A stretch of 62,073 bases of DNA, the filler included, from Sphacelaria rigidula (taxonomy: Eukaryota), in assembly GCA_964200075.2 (NCBI GenBank). It is 8 parts of 8 records of this genome, joined end to end, with 100 filler letters (N's around TTAATTAATTAA, not from the genome) between each part and the next. Parts side by side here need not be neighbours in the genome. Positions count along the whole stretch, not along the records: positions 46,633 to 54,303 come from CAXNAA020013845.1; 7 more parts are not named here. One strand, given 5' to 3'. Made by a program: the position numbers and the translations under genes. Shown piece after piece: positions 7,674-61,356 of this stretch. Every line of letters begins with the position of its first letter. The stretch's first letter is position 1. Under the pieces are notes generated by a model. The model did no database searches. It was not told where the DNA came from and saw only the letters and a list, made by a program, of their open reading frames with translations.

Positions 7674-7773
7674 NNNNNNNNNNNNNNNNNNNNNNNNNNN
7701 NNNNNNNNNNNNNNNNNTTAATTAATTAANNNNNNNNNNNNNNNNNNNNNNNNNNNNNNNNNNNNNNNNNNNN
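7674..7773. other. Artificial contig linker
   Basis: N44 + TTAATTAATTAA (stops in six frames) + N44. Confidence 0.98.
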
Positions 7774-15445: not shown

Positions 15446-15545
15446 NNNNNNNNNNNNNNNNNNNNNNNNNNNNNNNNNNNNNNNNNNNNTTAATTAATTA
15501 ANNNNNNNNNNNNNNNNNNNNNNNNNNNNNNNNNNNNNNNNNNNN
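15446..15545. other. Artificial contig linker
   Basis: N44 + TTAATTAATTAA + N44. Confidence 0.98.
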
Positions 15546-18371: not shown

Positions 18372-18809
18372 GTGACGATAGCACATTTTGCTGTTGTTGT
18401 TGTTGTTGTTGTTGTTGCAGCCAGTGGTGTTTTTTGTTCATTTGCCGTGTGGATCTTGTGCTGTCGTGGTGTATGTGTATTGTTCGGGTACCTGACCTAT
18501 TTTGTTCTGAGAAGACCCCACGATTGCAAGATATGAGCAATGTGTGTGAACGTGTTTGCAGGACATGCCGTAGCTGAGCACAGAGCAACAAGCACCGCCG
18601 AAAAAAAAAAGATCTGATGAAAAACATACAAGTGTAAAAATTGGTGTGTCAGCGCCCGTCAGCACACACCGTTTAGCAAAGCGATTGCAGGCACCTGTCG
18701 GTAACTCAGCGTTAATATGCCGCAGCCGCTCCATCCATCCTGCCCCCCGCGCCCTAAACCAATATCATGCTTCCCCTGGCCTCTACCCTCGGGTACGCGC
18801 ACGCGGCAG

Positions 18810-20174
18810 GTCTTGGGCATCACCGCAGCACAGCACCCCCACCCGGGTGAGGCAAACACCGCCGTCGAGTGTACAGGTTGGACGCGGGGTCGCGAGTACA
18901 GGAAGCGGCAGCGGCAGCAACAGCGGCAACAGTTCCACCGGGGGCGGATTCCTTTCACGACAATCATCAGTCGTGCCCGACGCGGGCACGGTCCGCAGGG
19001 AGTCATCAGGGGCAGCCGCAACCGGCAGCGGTGGCGGCGGCGGAGGGATTTTCGGCAGAAATTCCAGTGCCGGCGGCGCCAAGCCCATAACTAGCACGAG
19101 CGACGATAGGCGGGGTAAGATGGCAAAGGCGTCGGGGAATGGCTCCATCAACTCCTCTGCCAGCGGCGTAACCGGCGGAGCCGGTGGCGCTGTCGTGGCT
19201 CTTTCTACCCAGGCCGAATCTAATAGGTCGTCGTCGTCCCCGGTACCGGCTGCGACGTTTGGAGTGGCGGCTACCGGGGGGGGGGCGAAGGGGCAGACCA
19301 GAACAAGTGCCGCTGGTGGAGGTGCCAAAAGTTCGTCGGGCTACCCGCCCATGTCCATTGCGGCGCCCAGAGAGTTCACTGCGGGAGGAGGTGATAAGAA
19401 AGCCGCGGCGCCGGCACCCAACCCCGCTCCAGCTGCTGCTCGCACGACAAAGGCGAAGCCGTCCGCATCGTCCGCTGCTTTCCCTCCAATGGCAAAAACA
19501 GCGCCCAAGGAATTCACTGCAAAGACCGCGACAAGGTCTGGTAGCGCGACGACCGCTGCTAGCTCGGGCACTACTGCCGCCCCCGCTACGGCCGAAACTA
19601 AGAGTTCGGCGCCGGCGACTTCTACTGCTGTGCCGGCGACCACGGCGGCGGCCTCGGCGCCACTGCCATCTCCGTTCGGCGCCGCCGCAAGCGGCTTTCC
19701 GTCGGCTAAGCCTTCTCCATTCGGGTTCGGCTCAGGGTCGCCGTCCTCCGCAAAAGGTGCGTTTGCTACGGGCGCTTCGATTTTCGGCGCGTCGGCGACT
19801 GCGCCCGCAACGGCAGCGGCGCCAGCGGCGGCGTTTGGCACGGGAAGCATGAGCGCGCTATCGGCCGCCGCTACGGTGGCTGCTCCGATTCCGCCGCCGC
19901 CCGCTAAAGCCACGGCGCCAACTCCGGCGCCGCCCCCAGCGCCGGCGCCAACGCAGGCGGCTAGCGCAGGCGCGTTTGGGATGGGCGGTGTCGGAGCGGC
20001 ACTGGGTGCGGCGGCAGCGTCACCCGCCCAGGCCCCAGCGGCACCCGGCCCGGTGGCGCCAGGCCCAGCGGCACCCGGGGGGACGGTGGACTACCAGACC
20101 CAGGTTATGGAGATCTACAAGAAATACAATCCTAGCAAACTCGGAGATGTGGATAAGCTCATCCACAAGTACAA
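18810..20174 (+). CDS. FG-repeat nucleoporin-like protein (Nup214/Nup159-like), large exon
   Basis: Long A/S/T/G/P-rich ORF with PSPFG, AFG and IFG repeats, ending YKKYNPSKLGDVDKLIHKY-aa|gtgag. The 5' acceptor is uncertain (18810 or 18877). Confidence 0.75.
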
Positions 20175-20637
20175 GTGAGAGATTCAGTCAGTCACCAGGC
20201 ATCGGAGGAGGGGCAGGGGGAAGGGAAGAGGGAGGGAGGGAGCGTGAGAGGCAATGATTAGTTATCCTTTTTGAAGAATAGCGTTGCTTGGCCGTGTACC
20301 GTTGTGTCGGCTGCGAAGTTTGCCTGAAAGATGTTGAAGATGAATCATCTCGCGGTAGTCGGCCCTGAATTTATGGACCCTCGGCCATCATGTAGTCACG
20401 AAGATCGACGATCCCGTTCGATATCATCGATTTTTCACCGAGCAAGTTCCTCTGGATGAGACGATTGTATTTATTTCTGCGACAAAGATGTGCATCACGT
20501 CACCTCAACTAAACTCTTTCCCAATTTGGACACCCCGCCCCCTCCTCTCCCGCCATTCACCACGACCACAATTCCGACGAAATCTGACGTGCGTGTGTCT
20601 CTATGCCCTTTCATGTTTTCATATTTTTCTTTGTCAG

Positions 20638-43305: not shown

Positions 43306-43325
43306 GTAAGAACTGCCCCCACCCA

Positions 43326-43336
43326 TTGTTGTTGTT

Positions 43337-43420
<84 letters not shown>

Positions 43421-43440
43421 GCTGCTGCTGCTGCTGTTGT
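43326..43440. repeat. (TGT)n/(TGC)n microsatellite
   Basis: Direct reading; shorter (TGT)n tracts at 18390-18418 and 21285-21318. Confidence 0.95.
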
Positions 43441-43912
43441 TTTTGTAGACCAGGGTTGCACGTCATGCACATATCGGGTCGAAACTGTCTGTTCGATCCA
43501 CAGATGTTTGTCTCCTCCAACCATCATATTTGACCAAGAGTTCGCAAGAATATATTTATATATTGCGGAAGATATTGTGCACGACTCGAATCTACTGATC
43601 TTACTGCGCGTCGAAGGAACAAAGTAATTTACCCGTGGTCAACCAAACTTGCGGCTCTTAGTGTGGAAATAATGTATAGAAACGTATCTTATGGTTCATA
43701 CAGTGTATGAAGACTTTGACCGAGCAAGAAGAAAAGTTGATCCACAAACAAATGTTGTATATTGAGAAGACACTCGTTCATCAGAAGGCTGCGAAGCTGA
43801 TGGTACCGATGTTTCCCTTGATGTCACTTGTGTAGACCCGTAATGGACCTGCTGCGCCTGCCAGTGCATGGGAAACAAACATCCTGGCTTGCTTTGTTGA
43901 TGTAATCCACAG

Positions 43913-46532: not shown

Positions 46533-46632
46533 NNNNNNNNNNNNNNNNNNNNNNNNNNNNNNNNNNNNNNNNNNNNTTAATTAATTAANNNNNNNNNNNN
46601 NNNNNNNNNNNNNNNNNNNNNNNNNNNNNNNN
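46533..46632. other. Artificial contig linker
   Basis: N44 + TTAATTAATTAA + N44. Confidence 0.98.
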
Positions 46633-46643
46633 AAGCAAACGCG

Positions 46644-46961
46644 ATGGGGTCGCCGGAGGTATGGGACGGCGAAACGGGATGGAATGTGAAGAATTATGCG
46701 GTGAGAGCGTTTAAGGCGCTGATGTATCGTAGATTTCGGATGGTCAATTCGCCGTTGTCCCATCGTAAGTGTAAGCGAATGATGCGTGATATTGCTCATA
46801 TGATGTCAGGTCAGATGCTTAATGAGGATGGTGTGGTGTCCTCGAGAGCTGTTGCTATGCGGGACTGTATGATTGTTCCCGTTCCACCTCTCGTTTCACC
46901 TGATCAAGCGACTGAAACAGGAGAAATTGTTGATGCGCAAGCTTCTGTGAAGGCAGAGTAA
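46644..46961 (+). mobile_element. ORF fragment of a non-autonomous LTR element (integrase-derived half fused to family C-like half)
   Basis: GSPEVW..N.KN..NSP.S...RMMR resembles the family B integrase; EDGV.S..VA.RDCM.VPV.PLVS resembles ORF 57700-58248. Confidence 0.6.
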
Positions 46962-47249
46962 TTGTCACATCGGTTCGGCAGTAAGCAGACCTGCTAGCGT
47001 CACAGACTGAACGTGGTTCACACAATGGATCGCCGCGTTACCATGTTCCTCTTCCGGAGTACCCGGCGTCTTGGTGCAGCCGTCGATCTTGGTAACCATT
47101 CTGCCGGGTTAGACCGCGTAGGGCATTTCAATACCGTGCAGGAACGATTTTATACCGCCCGGGGGGTGTCCGCTGCCTTGCTGGCCGCTCTGCCGGGTTA
47201 GACCACGTAGGGAATTTGAACACCGTGCAGAAACGATCCCTTTTCTCCA

Positions 47250-49083
47250 TCAATTGGACCCCGAAAGTGTTCCTGTATCCTGCCCATTCACAGCATATTG
47301 CCGCACCTCTAACTGCGTCATCTCTTCCCAATCCCAATCCCCATCCTCATACTTGATACGATAATACGGCTGACGGAAATCGAACACTATCCCGTCGAAC
47401 TCCTGCTGCTCACCTTGGCTGTCCACAAACCGTTTACGGATTTTGGTCCCTCAGGAAAATCTGTCGCAAAGCTTCATCCCGAGCAATAGAGTCTCTTGCT
47501 GCTTGAGATGGCGTAACAGATGGGCGTGGTTTGGCTTGCGGGTGATATAGTTCCCACAAGGCATGAAACACGCCCAGCTGCAACCCAGTGAAACTGCCCA
47601 AAACTTCCTCCTCAGAAAGACAGAAAAATTCGGCTCCGTCATGAAATAACCCCCGATAGGCCCACTCCCATGACGATGTTGATCCTAGCACCACCTTCAC
47701 ATCTGTCAATGTGTGCAGTTGCGGGACGGACGTGATCTCCTCAGCCAACTCCAAATCAGCCCCCCACGCTAACTGAGAGTACTCGTCCGGAAACGGATGC
47801 CGTAGCTGTTCAGAGCGCACATGAAATTTCTTCACATTGCCTGCCGATACCGCCCGTCCTCGTACCTTGCGCCCCTGCATGCTGACCTTAAGGCTGAGAC
47901 CTGGTATCACCACTTGCTGTACCGTCCATGGTCCCGTCCACAAGTCGTGCACTAGTTTAGTTGGCACATGTTCGTGTACAAGGGAGCTGTCGGGCTCTTT
48001 CACTAACATCAGATCCCCTACTACCTGAGCTCGCGACCCCGCTGATTGGTGAATCAGCTCGGCATTTCTAGCCGATCTTCCCTTTGCTTGTGGCGTTGGG
48101 TCAACAGCTCGTGAACCTCCTTCAGGTTCTAGCGCTGTTGTTTCACCGTGTTGTTCAACGGTGGAGACTCCGCTTCAGGTGACACAGCGTCTATTTGGGT
48201 GCGTGGCTCGCACACAAAAATCAGCTTGAATAGAGTCGGGTTATTAGGCAATAGCGGGTCGGGAGTAGTGCGGTGAATCCACACAGCGGGGTCTAAGTAC
48301 TCATCCCAACTTTCCGGTCACTGCTTACAGAGCTCGGCTGAAATGTCGTGCAACCATCCCCCGTACCTCTCCACCGCGCCCTGACCGCGAGGGTGCTCTG
48401 CCGGACCGTGATCCAGCTTCACTTTCATCCACTGGCATACATGGTTCACTAACTCCGACGTGAACTCCCCCCCAGCGTCACTCCTTAGAAAGTAGGGTAC
48501 CCCGAACGTCAAGAAGAGCTTCAGCAGACATTTCGCTACGGGTACCGTGAGCTTGGCAGCCAATGGAGAAGCAAAGAGAAACTTGGTTGCTCGATCTACG
48601 ATGATCAACAAGTACCTGTTACCCGAGGCGGAAACCTGCTTCATGTCCGATATGTCCATTTTCAACACCTCCCATGCCCGCAGGAATCGGGTGGGCCGCA
48701 TCGCTAGGGTGTGACTATTGGTACGCTTGCGTCGGCGACATCCACAAGACAACACGTATTTGCGAGTATCGGCGAAAATACCAGGCCATTCGTACCGTGC
48801 GTTGACTACTGCCGTCATCCTCATTACTCCGGCGTGCCCCTGCGTAGTGTGCACCAACGCCAGCAGACCCGGCACTCGGCTGCGAGGGATAGCTAACTTA
48901 GCTGGCTCCTTAGGGGAGGTATACCATGAAATATTATTCTCATCTAGCACGTACGCATCCCGCCTCTTGCCAGCTCCTTCATTCTTAGGCCCCTCTTTTA
49001 ACCTATACTTGATGGGTCCAAGACGGGAGTCCCGCTCTTGTAATAAAACGAGTTGCGGTTTGTCCATCAGTATCGCCCTCGCT
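47250..49083 (-). pseudogene. Ty3/gypsy family A integrase with GPY/F region and C-terminal Tudor-like domain
   Basis: HTTQGHAG..C.C; LKMD; IVDRATKF; LRSDAGGEF; HPRGQGAVER; KLVHDLWTGPW. After a frameshift: GTKIRKRF..EFDGIVFDFRQPYYRIKYEDGDWDWEEM. Confidence 0.88.
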
Positions 49084-49700
49084 TGTTCGAGAACGGTCCT
49101 AGGGTTACCTTGACCTGGTATCGGCTTATAGAGCCCTCCTGGAGTCAGAACAAGGTCACAAGATTGCTCCAAGAGCTTCCTCCCTCACTAGGGCCTGGAG
49201 ATTTCAAGACAGTTGTTATTCATAAACACACAGCCTTCGTTATCGGAAGTAACCACATGCTTAAAGCATGTGATGTTCAAATCCACATAGCCTCACGGGT
49301 GGCCACTGGGGTCTGTACCCTGGCCATTTTGGGACCTTATCCACCTTTGGTAAGGTCCGCGGATTGGGTAGACAACTGAGGAGAATTCGCACAGCATAGA
49401 CAGGATCGAAACAAACCATCTCGCAGTCTATAGGCGGGTGATTCCCCTGTAGACTGGAAATGTTTTGTTTCGAACCTGCCCATGCTGTGCGAATGCTCTT
49501 CAGTTGTCCACCCAATCCGCGGACCTTACTAAATGTGGATAAGGTCCCAAAAAGTCCAGGTTACAAACCCCAGAGGCCACCCGTGCTGCCGATCAGACCC
49601 GCAAGTCCATCAACCAATAGAAAACGCCTACAGCAGATTGTTCCACTTGTAGATCATCATGAACCTGCACGTACGTGTACCGGAGGTGGACTACTCTACA
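49084..49700 (-). mobile_element. 3' LTR of gypsy family B (contains a 292-bp foldback insertion)
   Basis: Minus strand: PPT-like TTTTGGGGGGTGC, then TGTAGAG...GAACA. Homologous to 60060-60357; family A integrase resumes at 49083. Confidence 0.75.
49294..49585. mobile_element. 292-bp foldback element
   Basis: CACGGGTGGCC...GGCCACCCGTG; the arms pair almost to the centre (~49440); CT on both flanks. Confidence 0.85.
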
Positions 49701-50000
49701 GCACCCCCCAAAACTCCGTACTACTCGAAGTAGACGCGAGTTTGACAAAACAGTAGACACCGATTATCACGTATGCTACCTTCGTCCCCCCGGTAGTGAC
49801 ACACGACCTTGTACTGTCATGTTCCACAAAAACAATAACGTGCACAACCTTAAACATCGACACTCAAGGACAATGTCTCAAGCGAACTCAGGGAAGTCAA
49901 CCATTCTTCAACTGTAATTTCCACGTAAGTATTTTCACACAAAGCAAAGGTGTCAAGTAAAGTACCATCTCAACCAGTAGCATTCGATATCATCATACTT

Positions 50001-53000
50001 TCAAAGCTTCATAACATACTTTGCCTGCAAACGTGCTCGCACCTTTTTACTTAGTCCCAACTTACGCAGCTCAGATTTTACAAATTGCGGGGCTCCGCCC
50101 ACAATATTTTCCAGAGGCTCCCACGAGTTTTCATCTTTGCCAAATCCGACCCACGCCACATGTACATAAAATCCATCGCCTGCTTCGTCCTCAGATATAC
50201 CGACCATAGCCGCCATCTCAAACTCGCCTTGTGCAAAAGCATACTGGAATATCTCGTTAACATCAGCCGTAATCTTCAGCTCCTTGTCCGCATAAAACCG
50301 AAGGTGGGCGACATGCACATCCTGTACTTCGCCATTCACGATGTTGTGTACCCCGTACACATGTTGTTGTTCCGCCGTCACAATCCGCCAAGGCCCCGTC
50401 CACGTACTCACAAGCTTCGGCGTAGTTCCCGAACGCCTCACCCTCGCCGCCAGCACGTAATCGCCCACCACAAAGTTAGGAAGCTTTCCTTTACTAGCCA
50501 CACGTCTCTGTAGATCGCGATTCTTGTCGACACGCTGCGCCACCTTCTTGTGCAACTCTTGCTGAGCCTCAACGATTGACGTCACCTGTCGCCTCAAATC
50601 GTCTTCGTCAAGCACATCGACGCTCCATTCGCCCCCAGTTGACGATGCCAAAGTAGAGAAACTGGTGCGCGGTGCCCGGCCAAACATAACCTGGTATGGC
50701 GTGCTAGCATAACGCTCTCGGAAAGCAGCGTTCAATGCCCACTGCACTGCAGGTACCAAACTCACCCATTCACGAACATCACGCCTTTCCTCTTGCAACA
50801 TCGTCTTCAAGGTACGAATAATCTCACGCATCATTCGCTCCCAGGTGCCATTAGACCATGGCGAGTTAGCAAACGCGAATCGGTGATCCAGCTTCAGCGC
50901 CTTCTCAAGCGCTGTCATTACACGATTCTTGAAATTCGATGCCGTATCGCTGACCCACACCTCTGGCGACCCCAGCGTTTTGCACCATGTCAACAGATGC
51001 TTCACCGTCGTGGCCGCCGTACAAGACTCCGTGGGCTCCAACCACACGAAGTTGTACAAATCGTCCATCACGATTAACATATACTTAAACCCGTCTCCTT
51101 CGTCCAAGCCACTAGTTCCCAGGGGGCCCCTCTCGCCAACGTAGAGAAAATCAAAATGCAGCACCTCCCCTGGGCGTGTACCATGAACCGTGCCCCCGAA
51201 GGGACGCGGGACCTTCTCCCCCGCCTTGGAATCCAAACAGTGTAGGCACTGCTTCACAAACTCAGTCACATGAGTCTCCATCCGGAACCAACAACAATAC
51301 TCTTGTAAGCGCTGTAAAGTTGCCACAACCGCTTGGTGACCAGCACCTTTCATGTGAGCGCATACCATCAAGCGTGTTTGTAGTCCTCTTGCTTCCGGCG
51401 GGATCCACAATACATCCCTTCCTGTAACATGCACGCGAAACAAACCCTCACCGCCTTTGAAGACAGGCCTAACAGCGGCAGTAAATGTCTCGGCCCCGTC
51501 AACCATACCTCCTACCCCTCACGGGCTTGCTCTTGGGCTTCACGAACGGCCTCTTTCGACGGTAGCGTCTCATCAGGCCCTCCACTTGCAAAAACAGCGA
51601 TGGCTCTCACAGATACCGCTGGAACGTTCACCCACCGGGACAGTAGATCTCCCCAGCAGTTACGCTCACCAGAAATATGCCTGATTGAAAAATCATACTA
51701 CCCGAGTACAATCTTCCATTGTTCAAGGCGCTGTGCAGCAGTTTTCGCCAGTGTGGTCACGCATGCTTCGGGATCAAAAATATAAGCGAGATTGCGATGG
51801 TCCGTAAATATGGTCACTCCTCCCCACAAAAGATACTCCAACCTCCGAAACGTACTCACGGTGGCATATCCTTCCTTGTTCACCGTAGCCCACCGCAACC
51901 GCGCTCCTCGAAACGCCCACTAAGAAATCCCAGGGGCTCATGACTCATGTCTTCACCGCTATATCACGGTCCAATTCAGCTCTCGGTACCTGGGTCATGA
52001 AACTACCCCGATGAAGATCCGACGCGTCTGGAAACATCATCACCTCATAGCCCTCCTTGGGATGTGACAGAGCAACAGCATGTGTCACCAAATTTTGCGC
52101 CGCTGTCCAAGCTTGCGCACGCTCAAATGTCCACGCTGCCTCCTTGATTTTCCTGTTTGAAGCAACCCGCTTTGTACGACGCACGTTGCCCACCATATGC
52201 TCCTCGAGCAAAAGACGAAGTGGCTCCACCACTTCAGCAAGGCGCGGAAGAGACGTCCGCAGCCAATTCACCTCTTGCAAAAATTGCATCAACTAGCCCG
52301 CGGTTTGAGGACGCCTCATATTCGCCAAACCGCTCAGCCGGTCCCTGTCGTGAGCCACCTGTCCACCCGAGACAACCTTTCCGCACCACGTAATTTGCGT
52401 ATCATAAAACATACACTTGTGTGCAGCCGCAAAAAGACCAACATCCTCGAGGCGGTTTAAAATCGCATTCAGCCGCGCACAGCAAGTCATCTTCATTTGC
52501 CCCCCACCACAAGATGTCATCTACCCACACCTTACATGGAAGTCCAATCAATAGCTTCGTCATAGTGCCCTGAAAATACCTCGTAGCGTTGAGTACTCCT
52601 TTAAGCACGCGCGTAGGCGTACATAACCCGTCAGGGGTTGCAATAGTAAAGATTTCTTGGGCATCTACCGCCAACGGCATCTGCCAGTATCCCTGCAGCA
52701 TGTCTAGCTTTCCAAAACAAGCAGCCCCTAGCAAATCCGCCATCTCCGCTTATTGGTTTGGTATCACAGTCGGCACTTTCTCAATCTGCTTATTAACGGC
52801 ACGGTGATCACTCACCAGTCTGAAACTACCATTTTTAGGCGTTGCAACAGCCGCGCTCGCCCATACTGCCTGCAAACTGCGATAAACGAGCCCGAGCGCC
52901 ACCAACATCGCCGTGCAACGTGCCAACCATGCCATCTTAACCGGAGAGTATGCTCGCGGCCTAGCCTTAACTGCCGTAGCACCAGGTTTGAATGTCACCT

Positions 53001-54303
53001 TGAGAGGCTTGACACGAGCGGGCGGATCACCCCGTAGCGCTCGCCGAAAAGCATTCGCACGGCGGTTTACAAGCTCGCAAAGCTTGCCCACGCCGCTCTC
53101 GGACATACCATTATTGGCAGCTACTAGTACCGCCTCCTCCAGCGCGACCTTACGCTCAGCCAGCTCTTAATCGGGGGCCATACTCATCTCCGGACCGCGC
53201 GACACCAACCGCTGGACTGAGGGATGCACGGGCTCCTCCCGATCACCTTGATGCTGCAGAGCCCCAACCGCGATGTTGATACGTCGACAATCCTTGAATT
53301 CAGGCGTATCTACACCACGCACCGAAGTGTTTCTCGCCCGCGCACAGGCACCTAAACTACTGTACACGTCGATGCCAAGTTCCTCTAGCATAGAGCTCCC
53401 CATGATAATGACATCATCGGTACCCGGCATGAACGCATAGGAGCATGGGTTCAATACAACCGGACCCCAGCCGGTGTGCAAAGCGGTGAGGACAGGGCAA
53501 GTCTTCTGCTTCACGTGCTCAACATTGCCATTTGCTTATTTCACCAACTGTTCACCAGCCATCGGTCTCACCACTTTGACATCTGGAAACATGGCTTGCA
53601 ATTTCGCCGCCATACCAGCTGACATGGTCGTAAGTCCAGATCCTGAATCTAAAATAGCCGTGACCGGACAAACATCCTTTGACCCTGCACTCGGAACAGA
53701 CAAGTCGGCAAGACACCATCTTTCCTTGTTATCTACTTGCATACCCTCAGATTGAAAACCTGACACCTCACCCGCTTTGAGCGATCTCCATGCTGGCACC
53801 GCCTCAGATTTCGAACCCGGGAACGAGTGCGATGAGATGGTCTGCTGCACGCCACTAGTAGAAGCGACCGGTTCTGGTGGCAACGTCGCCCCCCCGCTGG
53901 GAGCACTTTGTCCATCGGCTGAAAAGACAGCCCTTGTAGGGGCGGGACCCGTGCCCCCTCCGCGAGGCACCTGTCCAGGGCCCTGTGACAGCTGCTGCTG
54001 TTGCTGCTGCTTGTCGCCAGCCTTCGTCTGCCCACTGTCACTACGTTGTGACCAGCTTGGTCTTGCTGCTTGCAATCCTTCCGGAAATGGCCCTTGTCTC
54101 CACATATGAAACATCCTGCAACAACAAATTGTGCAAATTGAGGTTTACCTCCGAGATGAGGTTCAAGCCTAATACAGTGCTTTCCCCACACTTTAAGCGA
54201 TGGTGCCCAGTGACGGTTTTATCGGCCTAATGCCCCGCGATCGCGTAGATACTTCTTCAGCGCAATTCGCCGACTCTGTGAGCCTGCAGCTCTGACCGAA
54301 ACC
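50001..54303 (-). mobile_element. Ty3/gypsy family B (chromovirus-like) gag-pol, decayed
   Basis: Zinc knuckle CFICGDKGHFRKDC; protease ILDSGSG; RT LDMLQGYWQ..VWVDD; RNase H PDASD..KEGYA..TDHRNL; integrase HMKGAGH..CLHC..HFDFL..VSDTAS..SNGTWE; chromodomain VAWVGF..NSWEPLENI. Stops and frameshifts occur upstream of the 501-aa integrase ORF. Confidence 0.95.
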
Positions 54304-54403
54304 NNNNNNNNNNNNNNNNNNNNNNNNNNNNNNNNNNNNNNNNNNNNTTAATTAATTAANNNNNNNNNNNNNNNNNNNNNNNNNNNNNNNNNNNNNNNNN
54401 NNN
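54304..54403. other. Artificial contig linker
   Basis: N44 + TTAATTAATTAA + N44. Confidence 0.98.
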
Positions 54404-54469
54404 AGAGACAACCAACTAGACTACTGACTGGTCAGCGCTGACCAGTCAGTAGTCTAGTTGGTTGTCTCT
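54404..54469. repeat. Perfect loop-less 66-bp palindrome at contig start
   Basis: 54404-54436 is the exact reverse complement of 54437-54469. Confidence 0.95.
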
Positions 54470-54715
54470 TAAACAGTCACAAAAGCTGACTGGTCTGTAG
54501 TCTATTTGGTCGTCTCTTAAACCGTCACAAAGGTTAGTCGTGTGGGTTTGATCCCCGTCACTTTCCCTCCGGGGAGGGCGACTCCTCGTGCCAGCGCTCT
54601 TCGACTGCCATGAAGACCTCTAGTGTTGTCGCTTTCACCGTGTCCTAGAGATACTCGTCTCCCCCACTTATTCCGAGAGCGTGTGCACTAGAGTTCTTAG
54701 CAGTCAACTTCAAAC
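54437..54715 (+). mobile_element. Probable tRNA-derived SINE with a duplicated 48-bp head
   Basis: Two tandem units with A-box-like TAGTCTA(G/T)TTGG, then B-box-like GGGTTTGATCCCC; abuts gypsy RNase H sequence at 54716. Confidence 0.45.
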
Positions 54716-55913
54716 GTGAGCCATGAGCCGATGAGGTTTTTCAGCGGAACTTTTCGCGGAGCGCAGGTTCGGTGGGCTACGGTGGACAAGGAAGGCTATG
54801 CAATCGTAAGTACTTTCCGTAGGTTGGAGTACCTTCTATGGGGTGGGGTATATGTCTTCACGGATCATCGCAACCTAGCATACACTTGTTTAACCCCGAG
54901 GCGTGCGTTGCATCCGTGTGCAAGACTGCTGCCCAGAGGCTGGAGCAATGGAAGGCTGTGCTCGGGCAGTACGATTACTCCATCAGGCACATTTCTGGTG
55001 AGCCCAACTGCTGGGTAGATTCATTGTCAAGGTGGGTAAACGTTCCGGCGGTGTCTGTGCGTACTGCGGCCGTGTTTGCGAGCGTTCAGCCTGATGAAAC
55101 TCTGCCGTCGAAGAGCGCTATTCGTGAGGCAGGCCCAAGCCGGGTTCGGAGTGATCGTTGTTGGAGCCCCTAGTTTTGCAGCAGCTGTTAGGGCTAGTTT
55201 CGATAGACAGTGAGGGTTTATTTCGCGTGCATGTCGCTCGGCGGAATGTGTTGTGGATCCCGCCGCAAGCAAAAGAGCTGCAGTCACGCGTGATGGCGTT
55301 TGCTTACATCAAACGGGCGGGCCATCGGGGTGCTGTGGCGACACTGCAGCGGCTGCAAGTACTGCTGTTGGTTTCAGGGCGAAGCTCATGTGATAGATTT
55401 TGTGAGGAAATGCTTGCATTGTATGGACTCGAAAGCGGGTGAGACGGTCCCGCGGCCACAAGGGGAGGCGGTGCATGGCACACGGCCTGGTGAGGTGATG
55501 CATTTTGATTATCTGTACGTTGGCGAAAGTGGTCCGCTGGGCGAGAGCGGCCTGGATGAAGGCGACGGGTACAAGTACATATTTGTAGTGATGGATGATC
55601 GGTGCAATTTCGCGTGGTTGGAGTCGACCGAGTCTTGTACAGCTGCAGCGACGATGCAGCATCTGTTGGCGTAGTGCACGGCGTTGGGTACGCCGGAGGT
55701 CTGGGTTAATGACACCGCGTCGCATTTCAAGAACCGTGTGATGCCAGCACTGAAGAAGGCGCTGTAGCTGGACAGGAGGTTCGCGATTCCCAACTCGCCG
55801 TGGTCAAATGGTACGTGTGAAAGGACCATGCGACAGGCTGTCCGTACCTCGAAGGCCATGCTGGAAGCAGAGACGTTCGTGACTGGGTGGGACTGGTGCC
55901 TGCCGTACAGTGG
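54716..55913 (+). pseudogene. Gypsy family B fragment (RNase H to integrase core)
   Basis: WATVDKEGYAIV..TDHRNL; CLHCMDSKAGE..MHFDYLYVGE; ends at ..VPAVQW. Confidence 0.92.
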
Positions 55914-58900
55914 TGTAGACCTAGCGAGCATTGTTACCTAAGGTCAGGGACTTTGTAGGTGGTGATGCGGGTCTGATTGCCGGATTCTGTGATGGTGAAC
56001 TCCATTACGAGTACAGCCGGTTTTGCTACTCTGGTGGAGAGAGGCTATGGCCATCTTCTCCTGTACTATGCTGAGGGTTAATACATGAATAAAATCAGCT
56101 GCTGAAGTCCATGTGCCCGTGATGGGAGAAATCCACATGGCAATCTGATCTTGAGTGACAGAAGTCTACGATGAACGTTCATCAAGTCCGCTAATGGCGG
56201 TAGGTCCGCTGAAAAGCAGCTGACACTTCGAGATAAGGAAGTTTGCAGGCCTGATCAGTTTGCAGTAAACAGGACCAGCTCAAGGCGTGTTAACGTCGCG
56301 AGGAGTTGGAGAAGTAGAGCCGAGGAGGTTCTGAGGCAGTGCTATGGCGGGCTGTGGTTTCGCTCGTGCGTGAGGTGCGGGGGGTCGATCGACAGCTGGC
56401 GAGCCCAAGAGCGTTCCAGAAAAAGCGGCGAAATTACTGCCTAGTTGAGCCAGCGAGGGTTGCGTGTTCCACGCTTGGCCAGGTACGGCCAGGAAAAGGA
56501 GTTTAAGGACTTCAAACACGTGGTGAGACCTGCTTGAGGAAGAGGCGCTGTTTCCATTGTCGTTGTAAGGTGGTACAGCGCGTCTCGGTGTAAGGAGAGA
56601 GTTGTTGTTCCTGTGAGTGGGACACGACTTCGTTTATCAAAAAGGTCGTGTGAAGTGCTGTACTGCTGACCGAAATGGATGAGGTGCAGGAATATGTCAT
56701 CGTCGATGGTCGTGTTGTTCCTGTACTGGCGCCGGAGATGCCGTACTACGGCCGCAAGTTCTCGAGCGAGGAATCGGCCGAGTTTTTACGCAAATACGAG
56801 CAATATTTGCGAGATATAGATCAGGTAAACGCGCGGTGAACAAACCTCTTTGAGGTGGCAGCAGTTTCTGAGCTCATGGCGAAGCATATTACGAAATGTC
56901 TGTGTGACACGTTCTTGAAGCATGATTATGATGTTGGCATGCGCCGTCTTGGGGGGGCTGCTTGCACTTTGACAGCCGAGAAGCATGTGTCTGCCCGAGG
57001 GGACAGGCACGACAGTACACCCGCCGAACGTGCAGTAGGTGCTGCGCGTTTGAAACAACGGTACAGGGCAGATGCTTGCACTGCGGAGCCGAGAAGCATT
57101 TGTCTGCCCGAGGGGATAGGCGCGATAGTGCACCCGCTGAACGTGCAGTTGGTAGGGCGCGTCTTAAACCACGATACAGGGCAGTTGTTCCCACTGTGCA
57201 GAGCGGGAAGGAGACGCAGCACGTGTCTGTCAAAAGGGGTACACATGAGAGCGCGTCCGCCGACAGTACTACGGTAAGCATTGGTTTGGATGGTGCTGAT
57301 ATTGCTGTTTGAGAGGGCGAACATGCCGCGCAGCTCGAGCGGACTGCAGGCAGCTCAGCTGCCGCTGTTGCCGTTCAGGAGAGCGCTGAGCAGGAGGTGG
57401 TGGCTGAGACGGGAATATTTGATTCAGCCGCTGCTGCCGCTGCTGTTGGAAGCGCGAAGCCAACTTGCTCCGATGAGCTAGCGCTGAGCGGCAAAGGTCC
57501 AGGTTGCTTGTGGCCGCCGGACCAGAGCGTAGCTGGAGATACTCCTTGCATGCTCGAAGCTGAAAAGGGGTGTTATCTTCGTGATGAGAGTGAGCAGAGA
57601 AAGCTTGGGGCTTGCCGTGCTCACGGTGAATCTATCTGCTCCAGTGACATGGCAGGAAATCGTTCAGATGATTCGCAGGGGTGTCTGCTTGAAGGATAGG
57701 TGGATGCCGGGTTGGCGGAATTGCCGCCGGAGCAGCGCGTAGCTGTGGACACGCCTTGTATGATCGAATCAATAGGGGTGTGTGACCCGCGTGAAGCGGG
57801 AACGGAGCGCGAGCTGCAAGCTCGTGATGCTGTTAGTGATCACTATTCTGATGGCGACGACGAGCGTCGCGTGGTGTTGGGGTGGTCGTGTGCACTGCTG
57901 TTTACATGGACAGCTTTGGCGTGTTTGACGGCGATGGCGGAGGTGTCTCCACTGTTGCGCCGCGGGGTGTTTGAGGAGGATAGTGTACCATCGGGAGGTG
58001 TTGCTCAGCGGGACTGTATGGATGTTCCCGTTTCGCCTCTGGTTTCATCTGTAACACTGACTGAAGCACAGGTGTTCCGTACTGCCCAAGTATCTGTGGG
58101 GGCAGATGATCTGTCGTATTGGTTTGGCGATGCGAATATACCTTTTAGAGGCGTGTTGAGCTACACCATGCGGGTGCCGGGTGTAGCTAGACTAAAGGTG
58201 CAAGGAGGGAGTGTCCGAGAGGAAAGGCTGCTCTACGCTGTGCAGTAGGTTGTGAGTCGAGCGCTGCTGTTTCTCAGGAGTAGTCTGGAGGACTACAAAG
58301 AAGGCATTACCTCAGGTGTCTGCTGCTGTGGTGAGCGCCGAGTGGGGTGCTGATGTTGACGAGCAAGTGCTGTGGTGTTTGAGTGCTTGTTGAGAATGAG
58401 GAAATACATTATGACCGGTATTCGCGAATCGTTTTGAGAATGATTTCAGCTTGTTATTGTGTGGTTTGTGGTCATGTTTGAGCATGAAACATGGTTGTTG
58501 AGCGAGTATGATCGTATCTCGTGTGCAGGGTAAAATTCTTGCGTACACGTGGACATTTAGGATGTGTCTTATGCTGATCTGATTGGCACGGACGATGCAT
58601 GGTGTTCGCTGCGAGGAAGGCGACATTGCATGTGCCGAGTGAAATGTTGGCATGCATGTGCGGATTTTCATATGCTGCGTGGAATTCTGGCAGGTATGTG
58701 CGAATTTTTGCTCAAATTGTACTGATATGAATGGTATCTGGTGACGACCTAGGATTGGGCAGTTTTCGATATACTGCTGTATGCTAAATGAAGAGAAGCT
58801 CGTATAATCTTGTTCGCGCAGGAACACAGTCGAATCATATTTGTGCGGTTTGCACGTACTGACTGCAGGATATATGGTGGAATGCTGCTGTCAGCGTGAA

Positions 58901-60059: not shown

Positions 60060-61356
60060 CGACTCAAAGTGGGGATGACTGACGAGTGCCGGAACCGGAG
60101 CTATGAACCTGCCTGGAATCAGAACAACGTGACAGTGCTGCTCCAGAGGCTTCCTCCCTGTCACGGGCTCCAGAGACTTCAAGACTCCAAGCAGATATAC
60201 AAACAGCAGTCTTTGTTAACCAGAAGTGAGGTTCATGGGCTTTCCTCACGAACACGATAGATCACGCATCCAATAGTCATTCTCCAACCAATCAATCCAC
60301 GATCCACCGCATATTTACATGTTGCATGTATATATACTGCAGGTGGACTACTCTTCAGCACCCTCCAAAACTTCGCACTACTCGGAGTAGAAAGCGACTT
60401 TGACAAAACAGTAGACACCGACGATACCCTACGATGTCGAAAAGAGACAAGCATTCAATATCAGACCGCATCAGGTCAAATCACGATGCCCCCCCCCAGT
60501 ATAATCCTATGACACCAGCACGAGCTACTCCAACATGTTTGGTAAATAATAACCAAGCGGTATACTCAACGAACACCAAATTGCATAGTAGAATCCATGA
60601 ACTACGCCAACAACCAATCACAGCTTGAAACCCAACCAAATCAGAGCTTTACTTTAGGCCATACTAAGCCAGCAAACGCGCCCATACCTGCTTTTCTAGT
60701 CGTAAATAACGCAATTCAGAACGTGCAGACTGCAGGACTCCTCCCAAAATGGTTTCCAGTGGCTCCCATGAGCTCTCATCCTTGCCGAAACCTACCCATT
60801 CCATGTGCACAACGAACCCATCACCGTCTTGAGCCTCGGACAAGTCAACGATCGCCTCCATCTCAAACTCTCCTTGAGCAAACGCATACTGGAACACTTC
60901 CTTCAGATCCGCGGTGACCTCCAGTTCCTTGTCCGCATAGTACCGAAGACGAGCGACATGCGCGTCCTTCACCTTGCCATTCACGATATTCCCAATCTCG
61001 TAGATATGTTTTTGCTCCGCTGCCACGATCCTCCAAGGCCCTGTCCACGTACTTACGAGTTTCGGCGTTGTTCCTGAGCGCCTAACCCTCGTAGCCAACA
61101 CAAAGTCACCCACCATGAAATTCGGCAACTGTCCCTTACTAGCTACACGTCGTTGCAGTTCACGAGCCTTCTCAACACGCTGCGCCACCTCCTTGTGCAG
61201 CTCTTGCTGCGCCTCCACGACTGATGCCACCTGCTCCCGCAGCATGTCCTCATCCAGCACATCAAGTCGCCACTCGCCGCCGGTCGACGATGTCAGGGTC
61301 GAAAAACTTGTGCGCGGCGTCCGTCCGAACATCACATGGTAGGGCGTACTGGGGTA
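60060..61356 (-). mobile_element. Gypsy family B 3' part (integrase C-terminus, chromodomain, partial LTR 60060-60357)
   Basis: MFGRTPRTSF..STWTGPW..EWVGFGKDESSWEPLE matches the C-terminal part of ORF 50001-51506; PPT/LTR junction like 49700. Confidence 0.92.

Follow-up and report, generated by a model that had tools for sequence, protein, structure and literature searches.

The described system closest to the element considered here, a decayed Ty3/gypsy fragment in the brown alga Sphacelaria rigidula (GCA_964200075.2), is Gypsy-10_Ec32 (Gypsy-10_ES) of Ectocarpus, a long terminal repeat (LTR) retrotransposon that the available part of a recent report (PMC12477816, Genome Biol, September 2025) describes as the first transposable element with a Tudor domain. 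The same partial text gives it 636-bp LTRs and 87 copies, and places a homologue outside the brown algae in Tribonema minus (PMC12477816). It further divides the Ectocarpus Gypsy elements into four lineages, all of which carry chromatin-reader domains and three of which bear C-terminal chromodomains; the reader-bearing lineages are stated not to be chromoviruses (PMC12477816). Fusions of a chromodomain to an integrase are, as far as the accessible portions of the sources go, described for chromoviruses, for Chronos in oomycetes and for CoDi-I in diatoms (PMC5348765), as well as for ECR-1 at Ectocarpus centromeres (PMC11541908). In these systems, the reader lies in cis behind the C-terminal barrel of the integrase and is thought to steer integration into chromatin that bears marks, according to the same portions (PMC5348765, PMC11541908).

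The window, i.e., the whole stretch of 62,073 nucleotides (filler included) that was analysed, holds just one copy of a Tudor-bearing family, designated family A, at ~49130-47250 on the minus strand. This copy is the dead, 5'-truncated 3' end of a Ty3/gypsy LTR retrotransposon. We consider it very likely that the element belongs to the stramenopile Ty3/gypsy retrotransposons and that its Pol ends in an integrase, a chromo-like module, a helical linker and, last, a Tudor-like barrel of the PTM/DIR17 type. Gypsy-10_Ec32, as described, resembles the family in being a brown-algal Ty3/gypsy element whose Pol has a C-terminal Tudor domain. In the text available, the Tudor domain of Gypsy-10_Ec32 is named and its lineage is set apart from the three chromodomain lineages, with no chromo-like module mentioned before the Tudor domain. 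In the literature searched for transposable elements that carry a Tudor domain, PMC12477816 was the sole report. An earlier note on this DNA could not confirm that the Tudor-bearing integrase was undescribed; such a design has in fact been described, as even the available part of PMC12477816 presents a Tudor-carrying Gypsy. Novelty is therefore low for the main point, a Tudor-carrying Gypsy in a brown alga being known since 2025; the chromo-like module that precedes the Tudor domain may have gone unnoted.

The Tudor-like domain and its fusion to the integrase

Translation of the minus strand at 47450-47250 yields a peptide of 66 residues, GTKIRKRFVDSQGEQQEFDGIVFDFRQPYYRIKYEDGDWDWEEMTQLEVRQY..., followed by a stop, and its residues are identical to those quoted in the earlier note. 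The frame has no start codon, opens directly after the TGA at 47453-47451 and lies one base out of register with an upstream frame of 246 residues (48174-47437, minus strand), which holds the C-terminal part of the integrase together with LHTLTDVKVV..WEWAYRGLFHDG..LSEEEV. When searched alone against Pfam, the peptide matches the PTM/DIR17-like Tudor family PF21743 (E 1e-5, 25.7 bits), in agreement with the type of domain proposed for it before, and a phmmer search against 1.84 billion representatives returns 43 proteins at E<=1e-3, five of them at E<=1e-10. Given the PF21743 match and these relatives, the resemblance is well beyond chance; at the level of sequence, chance does not account for the Tudor-like frame. 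For the 246-residue piece, Pfam gave no family at E<=1, and a homologue search against longer proteins was likewise negative.

Intact relatives were drawn from outside the source genome, as metagenome proteins and loci and as EukProt models. The closest single-domain match, P0003 (312 aa), is 63% identical over residues 1-65 and runs unbroken from the C-terminal part of the integrase through ...RDEALRQIPRGTKVRK... into the Tudor-like domain. The larger P0033 (669 aa) comprises the H2C2 zinc finger, the rve core, the C-terminal barrel, the chromo-like module and the Tudor domain in one unbroken protein, and the metagenome locus L002 stays open in one frame from the C-terminal barrel down to the stop. 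Two further searches provided 23 and 28 relatives. PF21743 matches 33 of the 48 scanned relatives at E<=0.01 and, in a second scan, 38 of 44 at E<=10; four of the 48 are at or above the curated cut-off of 27.2 bits (P0003, 29.8; P0050, 27.2; P0068, 33.4; P0081, 29.4 bits). Both rve and PF21743 occur within one protein in 11 of the 48, and the integrase–Tudor junction is continuous in P0003, P0033, P0018, P0042, P0068 and L002. Since intact relatives hold all parts in one open frame, the fusion is real, and the supposition that the Tudor segment continues the integrase in frame is borne out.

Family hidden Markov models place the chromo-like module before the Tudor-like one, always in that order, in 50 of the 87 proteins fetched, and in 49 of these 50 the Tudor domain ends 39 residues or fewer from the C-terminus. 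The EukProt model P0054 (1162 aa) contains reverse transcriptase (RT; RVT_1, 125-285), ribonuclease H (RNase H; RT_RNaseH_2, 359-410) and H2C2 (804-844), with the chromo-like and Tudor modules at 995-1069 and 1093-1130; because RT, RNase H and integrase precede both modules, its order is that of Ty3/gypsy. P0055 also carries RT and RNase H. Among solved structures, the family profile is closest in sequence to the Ty3 Gag-Pol integrase (7q5b, E 5.7e-22), with which it aligns through the C-terminal barrel. A scan of metagenome contigs yielded just two loci, both short, and neither a full-length element nor a pair of LTRs. Marine metagenomes and EukProt models contain the lineage in abundance and in diverse forms. 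One EukProt protein of a different make-up, P0059 (846 aa), joins a class-3 lipase domain (114-265) to the chromo-like (700-756) and Tudor (782-837) modules and is probably a chimeric prediction over a transposon insertion.

Among the matches, cellular PF21743 proteins score 64-137 bits and often contain 2-4 repeats of the domain; they sit beside Myb, PHD and bromodomains, neighbours that place the cellular family in a chromatin setting. The motif GT.V.K.F...F.G.V..y..PyY.V.YeDGD.EEl is common to the cellular family and the transposon version, whereas the latter is present as a single copy, with scores of 16-33 bits, and its DGD is followed by Trp almost without exception (38 of 39). ECOD files PF21743 in the SH3-like group, according to the part of the source available (PMC11836899). 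Searched against the PDB, the cellular member P0038 gave the LBR Tudor (E 0.05-0.07) and the RDM15 Tudor (E 0.16), neither of which is significant. In a tree of Tudor domains, one clade takes in 57 of the 63 transposon-type domains; its support of 0.56, on 51 columns, is too weak for a claim that the transposons captured the domain a single time.

The module between the integrase and the Tudor-like domain

Two AlphaFold2 models were made, one from alignment A1 (P0003 first, 44 rows; mean predicted local distance difference test score, pLDDT, 86.6; predicted template modelling score 0.65) and the other from alignment A2 (P0088 first, 18 rows; pLDDT 84.4). Both predict three small barrels in series. 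In P0003, the middle module is modelled with strands at 158-166 and 172-179, a short strand at 185-190 and a helix at 200-213, and P0088 follows the same pattern; a three-stranded sheet packed on a C-terminal helix, which is a chromodomain trait, is present in both models. The Tudor-like domain is predicted in both as four strands, a further short strand and a helix, at a pLDDT above 90.

The two-barrel model was compared by VIA-align with 48,161 chains; 13 of the 50 matches listed lie over the middle module and 37 over the last. Among the matches listed over the middle module (model residues ~6-86), 13 of 13 are chromo-type, with Z values of 4.3-5.3. They include the Oxpecker chromodomain with H3K9me3 (Z 5.3, rmsd 4.0, 58/61 residues), three entries of Chd1 (5.1, 5.1 and 4.9), Rhino (4.7), SUV39H1 (4.7, 57/62 residues), HP1 (4.7, 50/53 residues), the second chromodomain of Chd1 (4.6), Chp1 (4.6), the Chp2 chromo-shadow domain (4.5) and the CHD1 tandem chromodomains (4.4), along with the 977-residue chain of the ribosome entry 8ylr (4.5) and cpSRP43 (4.3), both of which we take to be chromodomains. 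As a lead only, a search of the language-model Atlas with P0003 148-216 found the top named clusters to be all Chromo (0.89 by features), and by structure chromo and chromo-shadow proteins are matched at TM-scores of 0.58 and 0.52, with comparable scores for unnamed clusters from bacteria and phages. On account of the uniform chromo matches, the near-full coverage of the targets and the strand-strand-strand-helix pattern, a chromo fold is proposed for the module.

Over the last module, the Tudor matches are SMN (Z 5.2, rmsd 2.5, 53/56 residues), FXR1 (5.2), MTF2 (4.7), BAHCC1 with H4K20me1 (4.7), RDM15 (7de9) with H3K4me1 (4.6) and LBR (4.3); PWWP, MBT, Agenet and KOW domains and plain SH3-like barrels are matched as well. 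The Tudor/SH3-like barrel expected of this module is predicted with high confidence for both P0003 and P0088, the structural matches being at modest Z values. In the three-barrel model, it is the first barrel that fills the list, with the integrase C-terminal domains of MLV, RSV and PFV at Z 6.3-6.8, and this barrel (P0003 residues 48-123) also matches Tudor barrels at up to Z 8.0.

Small barrels in series are likewise found in the SETDB1 triple Tudor, Spindlin1, the 53BP1 tandem Tudor and the CHD1 tandem chromodomains, all of which the tail of the family resembles in this respect. A Foldseek search of the PDB with the three-barrel model gave 15 matches at E<=1e-3, all 15 of them the SETDB1 triple Tudor; the best is 6au2 (E 4.6e-5, probability 0.99), and the TM-scores of the set are 0.15-0.21 at an rmsd of ~17 A. 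The two-barrel model has no PDB match at E<=1e-3, its best being Spindlin1, the CHD1 tandem chromodomains and the 53BP1 tandem Tudor at E 0.01-0.02, and a search against BFVD gave no informative match. Across these tandem readers of the royal family, the TM-scores to the tail are 0.15-0.26 and the rmsd values 17-21 A, with no sequence similarity; what is shared is thus the bead-on-string order and not the mutual packing. Comparison of the three barrels of the tail with one another by hhalign showed no similarity.

By alignment of the relatives, both modules are constrained and the variable tail is not; the middle module has the highest identity of all segments (Table 1). Between the metagenome loci L001 and L002, dN/dS is ~0.13 over 168 codons, with dS saturated. 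Strongly conserved aromatic positions are Y157, W174, Y176, F/Y180 and W188 in the middle module, and F/Y269, Y273, W274, Y278 and W283 in the Tudor-like one. Among the relatives, Y157, Y176 and F/Y180 are aromatic in 85-95%; judged by eye and not by computation, they coincide with an HP1-type cage.

Several results weigh against this reading of the element and its tail. The 25.7 bits of the window peptide are just below the curated cut-off of PF21743. Pfam Chromo (PF00385) is found in 0 of 48 relatives at E<=0.01 and in 0 of 44 at E<=10, a PDB profile search with alignment A2 returned nothing at E<=10, and hhalign of the middle module with the true chromodomain of a neighbouring element gave probabilities of 1% and 0.6%. 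All the structural Z values, those of 4.3-5.3 for the two-barrel model included, are modest and lie below the level that the tool calls clear, and the Tudor-like part also matches SH3-like barrels that are not readers (biotin ligase, VapX, CarD). Moreover, no RT, gag or LTR of the Tudor-bearing family is present anywhere in the window, and the targeting of integration is proposed by analogy with chromodomain-bearing integrases. A phmmer search of the PDB with P0088, in turn, gave chance matches only and no support for a chromodomain.

Taken with the models, the middle module probably has a divergent chromodomain-like fold, without support at the sequence level. The earlier note had suspected a degenerate chromo-like fold upstream of the Tudor-like domain, which stands at the level of fold and fails in every sequence test. 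It had also envisaged a different or tandem reader; the tandem, chromo-like and then Tudor, is favoured, while the idea of a Tudor-like domain instead of a chromodomain is not. Because the middle module matches chromo folds and the last one Tudor, PWWP and SH3-like folds, the tail is read as chromo-like plus Tudor-like and not as a replacement. The middle module shares its predicted fold with the readers of chromoviruses, Chronos, CoDi-I and ECR-1. The family differs from these systems in that PF00385 fails to detect its chromo-like part, behind which comes a second barrel from a separate domain family.

The window copy, its decay and its surroundings

The H2C2 finger followed by the rve (DDE) core, as in Ty3/gypsy (Metaviridae) integrases, is present at 49184-48321, and the C-terminal SH3-like barrel with a GPY/F-type motif, another Ty3/gypsy trait, is present as TGPW at 48024-47812 (Table 1). 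By tblastn with intact relatives, the copy is collinear in three frame pieces (49091-48075, 48078-47455 and 47450-47256), and the first change of frame is seen at 48070-48090 in the segments of P0003, P0033, P0050 and P0068. Homology to P0033 and P0050 begins at ~49091; since it starts only there, the copy is considered 5'-truncated. The 5' cut of the element lies at ~49127-49137, with depth jumps and loose contig ends at 49127-49138. No LTR-like direct repeat is found in 46600-56500.

Table 1. Features of the family A copy in the window (upper rows) and segments of the tail in relatives, numbered on P0003, with identity as the mean pairwise value among relatives (lower rows)
Feature	Position	Strand	Basis or remark
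Integrase N-terminal part, family A copy	48321-49184	-	H2C2 + rve
H2C2 zinc finger	~48890-48726	-	Pfam PF17921 (Integrase_H2C2), E 1.3e-9
rve catalytic core	~48671-48390	-	PF00665, E 6.4e-8, 33.2 bits, cut-off 32.6
In-frame TGA stop inside integrase, private to the copy	48318-48320	-	ORF list, sequence
Second in-frame stop, TAG	48129-48131	-	ORF list, sequence
First frameshift, frame 49184-48132 to frame 48174-47437	48070-48090, near 48080	-	tblastn
Integrase C-terminal SH3-like barrel, TGPW motif	47812-48024	-	profile + model
Chromodomain-like module (putative), PQLHTLTDVKVV...WEWAYRGLFHDG...LSEEEV...LQLGVFHALWELY	47545-47724	-	conservation, models
Linker, helix in models of relatives	47455-47544	-	alignment, AlphaFold2
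Second frame break, with TGA 47453-47451 in the downstream frame	47451-47457	-	splits integrase and Tudor frames
Private 6-base tandem duplication, conserved DGDWEE to DGDWDWEE	47328-47339	-	contigs, alignment
PTM/DIR17-type Tudor-like domain	47295-47450	-	PF21743; tail continues to stop 47252-47250
3' flank, 61-base repeat present twice, 89 bases apart	47088-47237	.	not a recognisable LTR
Integrase C-terminal barrel (TGPW)	P0003 55-125		identity 0.53
Spacer	P0003 126-152		identity 0.58
Middle (chromo-like) module	P0003 153-214		identity 0.59, highest segment
Linker	P0003 215-242		identity 0.42
Tudor-like domain	P0003 243-293		identity 0.51
Variable tail	P0003 294-312		identity 0.15

Contigs of three algal runs (X1, X2 and X3) and of a further run guessed to be RNA (X7) were mapped on 47150-49250. 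In each DNA run, ~1,500 contig pieces fit this 2.1-kb stretch at 82-99% identity, and the family is thus highly repeated in that organism. The TGA at 48320-48318 is a sense codon in nearly all other copies (12, 15 and 10 contigs in X1, X2 and X3, respectively), and the place homologous to the TAG at 48131-48129 is read through in the relative P0003. At 47452-47457, the length of the remaining copies in these runs is shifted by a net one base; the break at 47451-47457 splits the integrase and Tudor frames in the window copy only, and intact relatives are uninterrupted. The six extra bases of the duplication are missing at 47326 in 7, 6, 7 and 1 contigs (X1, X2, X3 and X7), and relatives have DGDWEE in unduplicated form. 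Since other copies in the runs are unbroken at these sites, the breaks are private to the window copy. One contig of X7 spans the Tudor junction in frame and was not counted as evidence.

Both flanks, 47150-47240 and the sequence beyond 49138, consist of other repeats at 10-25 times the depth of the element. On the 3' side, the pair of 61-base repeats lies right after the Tudor stop codon and belongs to a far more abundant repeat; "goes back" joints occur at 47150-47220, where the depth exceeds that of the element 10-25 times. The extreme abundance and the contigs that double back with variable spacers indicate that the 61-base unit forms arrays elsewhere, and several contigs link the unit to internal points of the Tudor-bearing element. 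No similarity was found between the 3' flank of the window copy and that of L002. On the other side, an inverted repeat at 49294-49585, with 129-base arms that are 88% complementary and 34 bases apart, looks like a miniature inverted-repeat transposable element; it sits between the Tudor-bearing fragment and the next Gypsy fragment, and 49138-49250 beside it reaches 10-25 times the depth seen over the former.

The copy lies amid fragments of other Gypsy elements. Immediately upstream, at 50004-54218 (minus strand), is a second Gypsy element of another family, with a zinc-knuckle gag and with RT and RNase H in several broken frames. Its integrase of 505 residues (50004-51518) ends in a recognisable chromodomain (PF00385, 25.6 bits), which matches ZMET2-type, CDY, Rhino and Clr4 chromodomains in the PDB. 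This second family is also represented by fragments at 55212-56021 (plus strand), 60652-61356 (minus strand) and 46638-46829 (plus strand).

Elsewhere in the window, a frame of 534 residues at 18574-20175 (plus strand) is of low complexity, rich in Ala, Gly, Ser and Pro, with FG-like motifs, and ends in ...YQTQVMEIYKKYNPSKLGDVDKLIHKYK; it has no Pfam match and may be a host exon. A long trinucleotide microsatellite at ~43310-43450 reads as homopolymers of T, Q, N, L, V or C across the six frames. N runs of 44 bases occur in seven pairs with a period of ~7,772 bases (7674-7773, 15446-15545 ... 54304-54403); they are too regularly spaced for assembly gaps and look like masking. Rfam and tRNA scans of the whole window gave no matches.

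Proposed integration targeting and alternative explanations

An experimental link between the chromodomain of an integrase and its targeting to heterochromatin was reportedly established by Gao et al. in 2008. By analogy, the two C-terminal modules of the present family would tether the integration complex to nucleosomes with a particular histone mark, so that new copies would land in chromatin where harm is small. The structural neighbours of the modules include readers of H3K9me3, H4K20me1, H3K4me1 and H3K36me3. In Ectocarpus, the available part of one report finds negligible 5-methylcytosine and a lack of H3K27me3 and H3K9me1/2/3, and associates H3K79me2 and H4K20me3 with repeats and low expression (PMC12477816). 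As H3K9 and H3K27 methylation are reported absent, in Ectocarpus only, the likely marks would be H4K20 or H3K79 methylation on repeats, or else H3K4 or H3K36 methylation. On a broader proposal, we are evenly divided: the Tudor Gypsy lineage of stramenopile algae could be a dual-reader lineage that has kept a cryptic chromodomain and added a Tudor domain, in which the pair may read a combination of marks, and which could be far wider in marine eukaryotes than its two named hosts.

We regard it as unlikely, but deserving of attention, that the barrels are real parts of the element without being readers of methyl-lysine, serving instead as extra SH3-like modules for binding target DNA, for contact with a host factor or for escape from silencing. 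DNA is bound by the C-terminal barrels of retroviral integrases, whose fold is the same. Matches to the Tudor-like part further include a PWWP domain bound to single-stranded DNA (6kco, Z 5.0), KOW domains and plain SH3-like barrels, and no paper in the literature searched names a ligand of PF21743. Binding to nucleic acid or to a host protein therefore stands as an alternative, since the same fold does so in other proteins. Set against it are the strong conservation of aromatic positions in both modules, the cellular relatives beside PHD, bromo and Myb domains, and the matches listed over the middle module, all of which are chromo-type and many of which were solved with methylated H3 peptides.

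It is very improbable that the host has domesticated the unit of integrase, chromo-like module and Tudor domain as a gene of its own. In favour of this, short proteins that lack RT are frequent among the database relatives, and P0059 joins the modules to a lipase domain; against it, ~1,500 contig pieces per run match at 82-99% identity, the window copy is riddled with stops and frameshifts, P0054 and P0055 retain RT and RNase H, and the published Ectocarpus family, in the part of the report available, has LTRs and 87 copies (PMC12477816). That the Tudor-like frame is open by chance, or comes from a host exon that happens to adjoin an integrase fragment, as its missing start codon and the out-of-register frames of the window could suggest, is scarcely credible and is refuted by the continuous junction of P0003, P0033, P0018, P0042 and P0068, by the open frame of L002 and by the contigs, in which the net difference of one base in other copies falls exactly on the break.

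Reader domains on integrases are among the clearest cases in which a transposon chooses its landing site. Under the preferred reading, with a Tudor-like domain behind a divergent chromodomain-like module, the question arises as to which marks define "safe" chromatin in hosts such as Ectocarpus. To what has been described, the window adds a decayed copy, the marine abundance and diversity of the lineage, and a testable hint that its integrase may carry a two-module reader tail.

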